From IMG/VR virus record IMGVR_UViG_2563366915_000001: DNA of 34,673 nt, one strand, 5' to 3'. Below the pieces are notes generated by a model. That model did no database searches. It was not told the origin of the DNA and worked only from the letters and a program-made list of their open reading frames with translations. The translations under genes were made by a program, and so were the position numbers. The DNA comes from a virus. Its lineage: Duplodnaviria > Heunggongvirae > Uroviricota > Caudoviricetes. Of this stretch, positions 18,131-19,875 are shown in pieces. The first letter of the stretch is position 1, and every line of letters starts with the position of its first letter.

Positions 18131-18346
18131 ATGAAATCCATGGATAAGTTAACAACGGGTGTCGCCTATGGCACCTCAGCAGGTAGTGCCGGGTACTGGT
18201 TTTTACAGCTGCTCGATAAAGTCACGCCCTCACAGTGGGCAGCAATAGGTGTGCTGGGTAGCCTGGTATTTGGCCTGCTGACGTACCTGACAAACCTTTA
18301 TTTCAAGATTAAAGAAGATAAGCGCAAGGCTGCGAGAGGTGAATAA
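18131..18346 (+). CDS. Holin (71 aa, phage-21 S / EssD-like)
   Basis: Small protein with hydrophobic segments and charged C-terminus ([13 protein letters not shown]); its stop overlaps the endolysin start. Confidence 0.8.
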
Positions 18347-18680
18347 TGCCTCCATCATTACGAAAAGCTGTTGCTGCTGCTATTGGTGGCGGGGCTATTG
18401 CTATAGCATCTGTGTTAATCACTGGCCCAAGTGGTAACGATGGTCTGGAAGGTGTGAGACATAATCCTTACAAAGACATAGTTGGTGTATGGACTGTATG
18501 TTACGGGCATACAGGAAAAGACATCATTCCCGGTAAAACGTATACCGAAGCAGAGTGCAAAGCCCTCCTGAATAAAGACCTTGCCACTGTCGCCAGACAA
18601 ATTAACCGGTACATCAAAGTCGATATACCGGAAACAACGCGCGGCGCTCTTTACTCGTTCGTCTACAACGTGGGTGCTGG
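18346..18680 (+). pseudogene. SAR-endolysin (T4-lysozyme-like) truncated by IS5 after about 111 codons
   Basis: N-terminal SAR domain [18 protein letters not shown] and the E/D/T catalytic region (GLEGV...[15 protein letters not shown]); the reading frame runs into the IS5 inverted repeat at 18681 and the native C-terminus is absent. Confidence 0.8.
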
Positions 18681-19875
18681 GGAAGGTGCGAATAAGCGGG
18701 GAAATTCTTCTCGGCTGACTCAGTCATTTCATTTCTTCATGTTTGAGCCGATTTTTTCTCCCGTAAATGCCTTGAATCAGCCTATTTAGACCGTTTCTTC
18801 GCCATTTAAGGCGTTATCCCCAGTTTTTAGTGAGATCTCTCCCACTGACGTATCATTTGGTCCGCCCGAAACAGGTTGGCCAGCGTGAATAACATCGCCA
18901 GTTGGTTATCGTTTTTCAGCAACCCCTTGTATCTGGCTTTCACGAAGCCGAACTGTCGCTTGATGATGCGAAATGGGTGCTCCACCTTGGCCCGGATGCT
19001 GGCTTTCATGGATTCGATGTTGATGGCCGTTTTGTTCTTGCGTGGATGCTGTTTCAAGGTTCTTACCTTGCCGGGGCGCTCGGCGATCAGCCAGTCCACA
19101 TCCACCTCGGCCAGCTCCTCGCGCTGTGGCGCCCCTTGGTAGCCGGCATCGGCTGAGACAAATTGCTCCTCTCCATGCAGCAGATTACCCAGCTGATTGA
19201 GGTCATGCTCGTTGGCCGCGGTGGTGACCAGGCTGTGGGTCAGGCCACTCTTGGCATCGACACCAATGTGGGCCTTCATGCCAAAGTGCCACTGATTGCC
19301 TTTCTTGGTCTGATGCATCTCCGGATCGCGTTGCTGCTCTTTGTTCTTGGTCGAGCTGGGTGCCTCAATGATGGTGGCATCGACCAAGGTGCCTTGAGTC
19401 ATCATGACGCCTGCTTCGGCCAGCCAGCGATTGATGGTCTTGAACAATTGGCGGGCCAGTTGATGCTGCTCCAGCAGGTGGCGGAAATTCATGATGGTGG
19501 TGCGGTCAGGCAAGGCGCTATCCAGGGATAACCGGGCAAACAGACGCATGGAGGCGATTTCGTACAGAGCATCTTCCATCGCGCCATCGCTCAGGTTGTA
19601 CCAATGCTGCATGCAGTGAATGCGTAGCATGGTTTCCAGCGGATAAGGTCGCCGGCCATTACCAGCCTTGGGGTAAAACGGCTCGATGACTTCCACCATG
19701 TTTTGCCATGGCAGAATCTGCTCCATGCGGGACAAGAAAATCTCTTTTCTGGTCTGACGGCGCTTACTGCTGAATTCACTGTCGGCGAAGGTAAGTTGAT
19801 GACTCATGATGAACCCTGTTCCATGGCTCCAGATGACAAACATGATCTCATATCAGGGACTTGTTCGCACCTTCC
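18681..19875 (-). mobile_element. IS5, complete 1195-bp element, transposase on the minus strand
   Basis: Terminal inverted repeats ggaaggtgcgaataag (left) and cttgttcgcaccttcc (right) match 15 of 16; internal sequence matches IS5 as I recall it; flanking 4-mers differ (ctgg left, ctag right). Confidence 0.95.
18827..19807 (-). CDS. insH: IS5 transposase InsH (326 aa from [12 protein letters not shown])
   Basis: ORF-track translation contains the IS5/DDE transposase sequence; the track ORF is extended upstream to 19843. Confidence 0.95.

Follow-up and report, generated by a model that had tools for sequence, protein, structure and literature searches.

How a complete copy of the insertion sequence (IS) IS5 came to lie directly against the broken end of a prophage endolysin gene, with different 4-mers on its two sides, is the question raised by the viral record IMGVR_UViG_2563366915_000001 (Duplodnaviria; Heunggongvirae; Uroviricota; Caudoviricetes), a stretch of 34,673 nucleotides that is referred to here as the window. 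On the basis of sequence comparison with Escherichia coli genomes, it appears very likely (a probability of about 0.9) that IS5 inserted first downstream of the lysis genes of the prophage and that a later IS5-adjacent deletion took the neighbouring 1,563 bp, including the end of the endolysin gene. Prophage decay through deletions next to an IS is a well-known process, to which this event belongs, and the allele is already present in public assemblies; a literature search found no published description of this DLP12-type endolysin/IS5 prophage allele.

The truncated endolysin gene and the adjoining IS5

The lysis genes of the window begin with an intact phage-21-type holin gene, essD (71 aa; 18131-18346, plus strand), which was assigned by Pfam to Phage_holin_2_1 ('Bacteriophage P21 holin S', E=2e-35) and named essD by the Prokaryotic Genome Annotation Pipeline (PGAP). 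The stop codon of essD is overlapped by the start, at position 18346, of the signal-anchor-release (SAR) endolysin gene rrrD. A 5′ remnant of this gene is present (18346-18680, plus strand), consisting of codons 1-111 plus 2 nt, and it is 100% identical to rrrD of strain HR5-1 up to position 3781 of the HR5-1 locus (L001). The endolysin frame enters IS5 after codon 112, and the resulting 147-aa fusion open reading frame (ORF; 18346-18789, plus strand) encodes RrrD residues 1-112 followed by 35 residues that are encoded by IS5.

The N-terminal 112 residues of the fusion are identical to those of the 165-aa full-length RrrD of HR5-1, and the fusion retains the N-terminal SAR segment as well as the catalytic positions E35, D44, and T50, by which a SAR endolysin is recognized. 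The fusion belongs to Pfam Phage_lysozyme and covers positions 3-83 of the 125-position profile, compared to 3-125 in the intact protein; it does not contain the complete lysozyme domain of a functional SAR endolysin. Full-length RrrD aligned from end to end with PDB entries 4ZPU ('Lysozyme RrrD') and 3HDE, and the C-terminal 53 residues of RrrD, about one-third of the lysozyme domain, are those that have been swapped for the 35 IS5-encoded residues. Rz/Rz1 and the 3′ end of the endolysin gene were absent throughout the window, and BLAST comparison with HR5-1 gave only two flanking blocks. Of a complete lambdoid lysis cassette (a holin, an endolysin, and Rz/Rz1 upstream of cos), the window contains the holin and a truncated endolysin, with no Rz/Rz1.

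The IS5 copy itself is complete, with a length of 1,195 bp (18681-19875) and the transposase on the minus strand, as judged by its terminal inverted repeats, identity to other copies, Pfam, and PGAP. Its termini, GGAAGGTGCGAATAAG and CTTGTTCGCACCTTCC, are 16-bp imperfect inverted repeats that are complementary at 15 of the 16 positions, and 0 base differences were found between this copy and the IS5 copies of strains HR5-1, E1, and WP7-S17-ESBL-01. The transposase gene is intact (minus strand, 18827-19843 from the first ATG, 338 aa; equivalent to 18827-19807 in the HR5-1 PGAP annotation) and contains the Pfam domains DUF772 and DDE_Tnp_1. In the identical HR5-1 copy, it is labeled by PGAP as 'IS5-like element IS5 family transposase' (WP_000019400.1).

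The length, the inverted repeats, and the single intact DDE transposase gene are those of IS5, whereas the 4-bp duplication at a YTAR site (CTAG/CTAG) that accompanies the same copy in HR5-1 is replaced in the window by CTGG/CTAG. The mismatched flanks of the window are therefore attributed to a later deletion and not to a different element, because the HR5-1 copy has CTAG on both sides. The left 4-mer, CTGG (18677-18680), is the rrrD sequence adjoining IS5 and is not a YTAR target. The right 4-mer, CTAG (19876-19879), which is present on both sides of IS5 in HR5-1 and as a single copy in E1, appears to be the remaining copy of the original target-site duplication. The junction between positions 18680 and 18681 has an ambiguity of 1 bp, in that the G at 18680 may come from rrrD or from the lost copy of CTAG. 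No second IS5 copy was found within the window, either among repeat pairs or by BLAST.

On the right side, IS5 and the CTAG are followed by an intact gene of the YlcI/YnfO family (77 aa; 19903-20136, minus strand; Pfam DUF3950, E=5e-21; ynfO in PGAP), and then by a lambda-type cosN with the 12-nt cohesive end GGGCGGCGACCT (20336-20347, plus strand), a single exact match where none is expected by chance. This 12-mer is the lambda cohesive-end sequence.

A preliminary description of this DNA, made from its letters alone, had claimed a SAR-endolysin frame that runs directly into the left repeat of a complete 1,195-bp IS5 starting at 18681, flanking 4-mers that differ and hence no intact duplication, the loss of Rz/Rz1 and of the endolysin C terminus, and, to the right of IS5, a ylcI-like gene and cos in place of the rest of the endolysin. 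All of these claims agree with the analysis above, the loss of Rz/Rz1 and of the endolysin C terminus being established within the window.

Comparison with E. coli genomes and the order of events

The window was compared by BLAST with 5,426 complete E. coli genomes. The junction of the rrrD remnant with IS5 was found in 0 of the 5,426 genomes, and none of them contained the configuration of the window in one piece; however, some matched both flanks of the window at 100% identity and carried extra DNA between them. Three of these genomes, those of HR5-1 and HR12-1 (L001) and of E1 (L002), allowed the events to be ordered.

In E1, the site is empty; between a DUF1398 gene and ynfO the sequence reads GAAGGTAC CTAG TCTGCACG, in which CTAG occurs once. 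In both HR5-1 and HR12-1, an identical IS5 is present at that CTAG, in the same orientation as in the window and with a CTAG/CTAG duplication, which is a canonical simple insertion. The block upstream of it is complete in these two strains, comprising essD, rrrD (165 aa), Rz, a 50-codon ORF, and the DUF1398 gene. In comparison with HR5-1, the window was 100% identical over positions 1-18680, and positions 18680-34673 contained one mismatch, the G/A difference that sets CTGG apart from CTAG at the junction. The one real difference over 34.7 kb is the absence from the window of L001 positions 3782-5344 (1,563 bp; NZ_AP041107.1 positions 1813661-1815223), a block that adjoins the IS5 end distal to the transposase start.

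The lost block consists of rrrD codons 113-165, Rz (L001 3941-4408; Pfam Phage_lysis, E=4e-29), a 68-aa lipobox ORF embedded in Rz that is taken to be Rz1 (L001 4161-4367), the 50-codon ORF, the DUF1398 gene, and one copy of CTAG. The right IS5 junction and the 14.8 kb beyond it are identical to HR5-1, which is the pre-existing junction of an IS-adjacent deletion. At the left junction, the exact IS5 terminus is joined, with a breakpoint defined to within 1 bp, to DNA that was formerly farther away, the 1,563 bp between them having been lost, again as in an IS-adjacent deletion.

From these alignments, the states are ordered as the empty site (E1), the simple insertion (HR5-1 and HR12-1), and the window with its deletion, and the direction of this series is not in doubt. 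The derivation of the HR5-1 state from that of the window was considered and rejected, as it needs a precise 1,563-bp re-insertion restoring four genes and a perfect duplication.

The annotation of HR5-1 places the element in context as a full-length lambdoid prophage at the DLP12 site, with tRNA-Arg and intD next to fimZ. Its genes are in the order intD, exo/bet/gam, the repressor region, O/P-like replication genes, the nin region, Q, the porin gene, the lysis genes, cos, terminase, and lambda-like head and tail genes. The window begins at the end of intD and ends within the tail genes.

A second deletion next to the same IS5 copy

Strain WP7-S17-ESBL-01 (L003, NZ_AP022173.1) contains the same IS5 (L003 positions 5345-6542) with the same CTAG on the lysis-gene side, after the DUF1398 gene. 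The other end of this IS5 adjoins CTAA between ompT and envY, exactly at the IS5 terminus (compare position 18598 of locus L007). Relative to HR5-1, 25,868 bp are missing, which comprise ynfO, cos, all of the head and tail genes, the tail fibres, appY, and ompT, and the remnant is a stump like that of K-12 DLP12, with the lysis cassette intact. No annotated IS5 was found in HR5-1 at the distal point between ompT and envY. The separate loss in WP7-S17-ESBL-01 at the same IS5 indicates that this copy made adjacent deletions more than once.

The junction in separate assemblies

The exact 147-aa fusion protein, which serves as a signature unique to the junction, was found to be encoded on four NCBI contigs, each of them >1 Mb, and has been deposited under three protein accessions as a 'lysozyme' of E. 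coli KTE170 and Escherichia sp. KTE172. Two of these loci were read (GCA_000408825.1 and GCA_000408845.1), the other two being reported only as similar places. In both loci read, the junction is continuous and free of Ns, and ynfO follows directly. That isolates assembled separately share the junction speaks against a one-off artefact of assembly, all of these being draft assemblies of one era.

In the GCA_000408845.1 locus (L006), N gaps are present in rusA, between ynfO and Nu1, and inside the terminase large-subunit gene. Comparison of L006 positions 9851-12444 with window positions 21591-24184 gave 9 mismatches in the A/W/portal region, which are either draft errors or real divergence.

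A probable two-stage origin of the deletion

We propose that the window arose in two stages. In the first, IS5 would have inserted into the intergenic CTAG between the DUF1398 gene and ynfO, downstream of a complete lysis cassette in a full-length lambdoid prophage at the DLP12 (tRNA-Arg/intD) site, and would have generated the 4-bp duplication. In the second, the 1,563 bp at the transposase-distal end of IS5 would have been lost, with retention of IS5 and of the other flank. The loss is interpreted as an IS5-adjacent deletion because the IS is intact, one of its original flanks has been kept, the other flank is DNA that lay at a distance of 1.56 kb, a duplication is lacking, and an ancestral state with the insertion alone is known.

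This interpretation is in keeping with what has been reported for IS elements in the laboratory. In E. coli mutation-accumulation lines, IS5 was the most active element and preferred hops to nearby sites, IS-generated deletions for the most part joined an older copy to a newly made one and clustered at intervals of 1-3 kb, and IS5 target duplications followed YTAR (PMC5009759). Adjacent deletions are a standard cause of IS copies that lack a duplication, following an earlier insertion at the same site, and each duplication-free IS-plus-deletion event examined in long-term evolution lines had a prior IS insertion at the same place (PMC11708052).

Three routes could have led to the second stage, and they yield an identical product that is not separable by sequence. 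A second IS5 copy may have hopped locally into rrrD, in direct orientation to the resident one, and the pair may then have undergone homologous recombination, a route that we consider a real possibility, if somewhat short of an even chance. A one-step intramolecular replicative transposition of the resident IS5 into rrrD is also possible, and is held more tentatively; such transposition has been described for IS903, of the same family as IS5, in work cited in PMC11708052. Cleavage of the IS end by the transposase, with subsequent resection and joining through microhomology, seems unlikely as the route, and the non-YTAR CTGG junction gives it some weight.

From the non-YTAR junction and its 1-bp G overlap with the lost CTAG copy, the last route can be taken further, to an event with no IS5 target capture at all, in which abortive cleavage at the IS5 end was followed by resection and microhomology-mediated end joining. 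The window would then be a natural case of the duplication-free, break-associated rearrangement proposed in PMC11708052, and the event may have been retained because it locks in a prophage with the porin and the PD-Lambda-1 and PDC-M63 genes described below; we regard this suggestion as doubtful.

Several observations weigh against the two-stage origin or the consequences drawn from it. The CTGG junction departs from YTAR despite the presence of 15 canonical YTAR sites inside the lost block, and it is not predicted by either the recombination or the replicative transposition route. The reciprocal junction of a two-IS5 intermediate (the IS5 end, CTGG, and the rest of rrrD) was present in 0 of the 5,426 complete genomes, by which the recombination route is neither confirmed nor excluded. 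All four contigs with the fusion protein (two of them read) appear to be in the deleted state, with no two-copy intermediate. No trace of the missing 1,563-bp block was found in a search that covered the window and not the whole source genome. Lastly, another, co-resident prophage could supply an endolysin and spanins in trans.

The preliminary description had attributed the loss of the endolysin 3′ end and the spanin genes to an IS5-mediated adjacent deletion or to recombination between two IS5 copies, and the series of E1, HR5-1/HR12-1, and the window bears this out. An alignment with an intact lysis cassette, which it had recommended for defining the deleted interval, was made with HR5-1 and gave the value of 1,563 bp. 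The extent that it had envisaged was correct for the end of rrrD and for Rz/Rz1 but incomplete, as the small ORF and the DUF1398 gene were also lost. Its heading, according to which IS5 had inserted in the endolysin gene, is not upheld, since the primary insertion is assigned to the CTAG that today forms the right flank of IS5, a site that was 1.56 kb downstream of the current breakpoint in rrrD.

Alternative explanations

The close contact between IS5 and rrrD might be explained by transposition of IS5 directly into rrrD, with a separate or simultaneous deletion that removed the DNA rightward to the ynfO flank. Such an event would leave the endolysin frame adjoining the IS5 end without a duplication, as in the window, and would fit a model in which an IS inserts into a deletion break; IS5-family movement with a deletion and without a duplication has been reported (PMC11708052). 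However, the right junction of the window (the IS5 end, CTAG, and the ynfO flank) is base-identical to that of the simple insertion in HR5-1 and HR12-1, in a prophage that is otherwise the same over 34.7 kb, and a direct insertion requires that the same site, orientation, and 4-mer were arrived at by coincidence. A primary insertion into rrrD was rejected on this identity, and we consider the explanation highly improbable. Even less credit is given to an illegitimate deletion that did not involve the IS, took place between CTGG in rrrD and its imperfect repeat CTAG (the left copy of the duplication), and came to adjoin IS5 by chance. The two breakpoints do share CT-G, the last G being the 1-bp ambiguity of the junction, but 14 copies of CTGG were counted in the 2.2 kb examined, and imperfect repeats of 4 bp are ubiquitous. 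An endpoint within 1 bp of an IS terminus is very unlikely by chance, and the same IS5 copy bounds the second, independent deletion of WP7-S17-ESBL-01, also exactly at its terminus.

It is also conceivable that the deletion exists only in the assembly. In that case, the genome would have an IS5 in rrrD and another, in direct orientation, at the CTAG site, and the assembler would have collapsed the repeat and dropped the 1,563-bp block between the copies. With a length of 1.2 kb, IS5 exceeds that of short reads, and the genomes that bear the junction are draft scaffolds of the 2013 era, one of which has N gaps nearby. Against this, the junction is on four >1 Mb contigs from separately assembled isolates and is N-free in the two loci read, a unique segment of 1.5 kb between repeats is normally assembled and not lost, and the window holds nothing that resembles the missing block. 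An artefact is very unlikely.

Comparison with known systems

The two-stage origin places the window among the IS-adjacent deletions described for IS1, IS5, IS150, and IS903 in E. coli mutation-accumulation and long-term evolution lines (PMC5009759, PMC11708052). As in those cases, the IS is intact and one original flank is kept, the loss of 1.56 kb falls within the 1-3 kb cluster of the literature, there is no duplication, and an earlier insertion-only state is found. The differences are that the window comes from a natural isolate lineage instead of a laboratory line and that its junction, CTGG, is not a YTAR sequence.

The prophage resembles DLP12 of E. coli K-12 in its location adjacent to tRNA-Arg and fimZ, in intD, in the module of Q, porin, holin, and SAR endolysin genes (98% identity over essD/rrrD), and in the participation of IS5 in its decay. 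In K-12 DLP12, however, IS5 interrupts the porin gene and the structural genes have been lost while the lysis genes remain intact, whereas in the window the porin gene and all of the structural genes present are intact and the lysis cassette is broken. The porin gene of the window (nmpC/ompC-type, 360 aa; 16475-17557, minus strand; Pfam Porin_1/Porin_4; 'porin OmpC' by PGAP in the identical HR5-1 sequence) is located between the Q antiterminator gene and the lysis genes. In E1, an identical IS5, flanked by a TTAG duplication, interrupts the porin gene (L002 positions 3002-4196), and K-12 strains also have an IS5-split porin gene. Taken with the site analyzed here, this indicates that IS5 struck the prophage module at no fewer than two sites in different lineages, and it is consistent with the earlier statement that the IS5 of K-12 DLP12 is in nmpC, so that the event in the window is a distinct one.

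The lysis genes also resemble the phage 21 cassette (the S21 pinholin, the R21 SAR endolysin, and Rz/Rz1; PDB 3HDE/3HDF and 4ZPU). The holin of the window is of the P21 family, and endolysin residues 1-112 align with RrrD/R21, but the C-terminal 53 residues have been replaced by 35 from IS5, and both of the spanin genes are absent.

Other features of the window

The region downstream of ynfO is that of a lambdoid packaging and morphogenesis module. The cosN site is followed by a cosB region that extends up to Nu1, and the region from ynfO to Nu1 is 97-99% identical to records of lambdoid Escherichia phages (PhiR42_1, Kati, and others). In lambda, terminase-binding cosB elements are present between cosN and the start of Nu1. 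At 20444-20500 of the window, between cosN and the Nu1 start, there is a 26-nt inverted repeat with 85% complementarity and a 5-nt spacer. The genes of the small terminase subunit Nu1 (20525-21070, plus strand; Pfam Phage_Nu1) and the large subunit A (21045-22970, plus strand; Pfam GpA_ATPase and GpA_nuclease) are intact and were also identified by PGAP in the identical HR5-1 sequence, and head and tail genes continue after terminase through to the end of the window.

Two matches to defence systems were found on the minus strand. The 500-aa protein encoded at 10549-12051 matches the PADLOC model of the PD-Lambda-1 anti-phage defence system (E=1.9e-198) and contains Pfam DUF4041 and T5orf172; its PGAP name is 'SNIPE associated domain-containing protein', and the gene is inserted on the opposite strand, with ren on one side and the nin region on the other. 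A gene pair at 5170-6572 matches the candidate defence system PDC-M63 (M63B, E=4e-42; M63A, E=7e-43), the smaller gene being DUF6932, and adjoins the gene of an S24-peptidase repressor. At the corresponding position, lambda carries rexAB.

Repeats were present at two further places. Four copies of the 22-nt repeat TTACCCGAATCAGGTAAGAAAA, 73-100% identical, are located at 8725-8841 inside the O-like replication gene (8284-9303), and in sequence they look like origin iterons. A 104-nt direct repeat with 89% identity is present at 12360-12463 and 14294-14397, the copies being 1,934 bp apart; one copy is upstream of a Bro-N/P22AR gene and the other is around the start of ybcN.

Predicted consequences for the prophage

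In the S21/R21 system, the phage-21-type pinholin alone depolarises the membrane, without release of a cytoplasmic or truncated enzyme. With one-third of the lysozyme fold replaced and both spanins gone, the lysis cassette of the window should be unable to lyse cells; a prophage that cannot lyse normally, as the preliminary description had it, is thus predicted from gene content. On induction, the holin would still depolarise the membrane, and the cell would die without lysis, with any virions trapped inside. Judged from the alignment, the prophage is otherwise unaltered compared to that of HR5-1. For annotation, the 147-aa 'lysozyme' is a truncated fusion, and a prophage of this type is to be scored as lysis-defective despite the intact structural genes in the window.

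The empty site, the insertion, the deletion to the left that removed lysis genes, and the deletion to the right that removed the virion module form a clean, natural decay series of four states around one IS copy. This series illustrates how cryptic prophages of the DLP12 type can arise.

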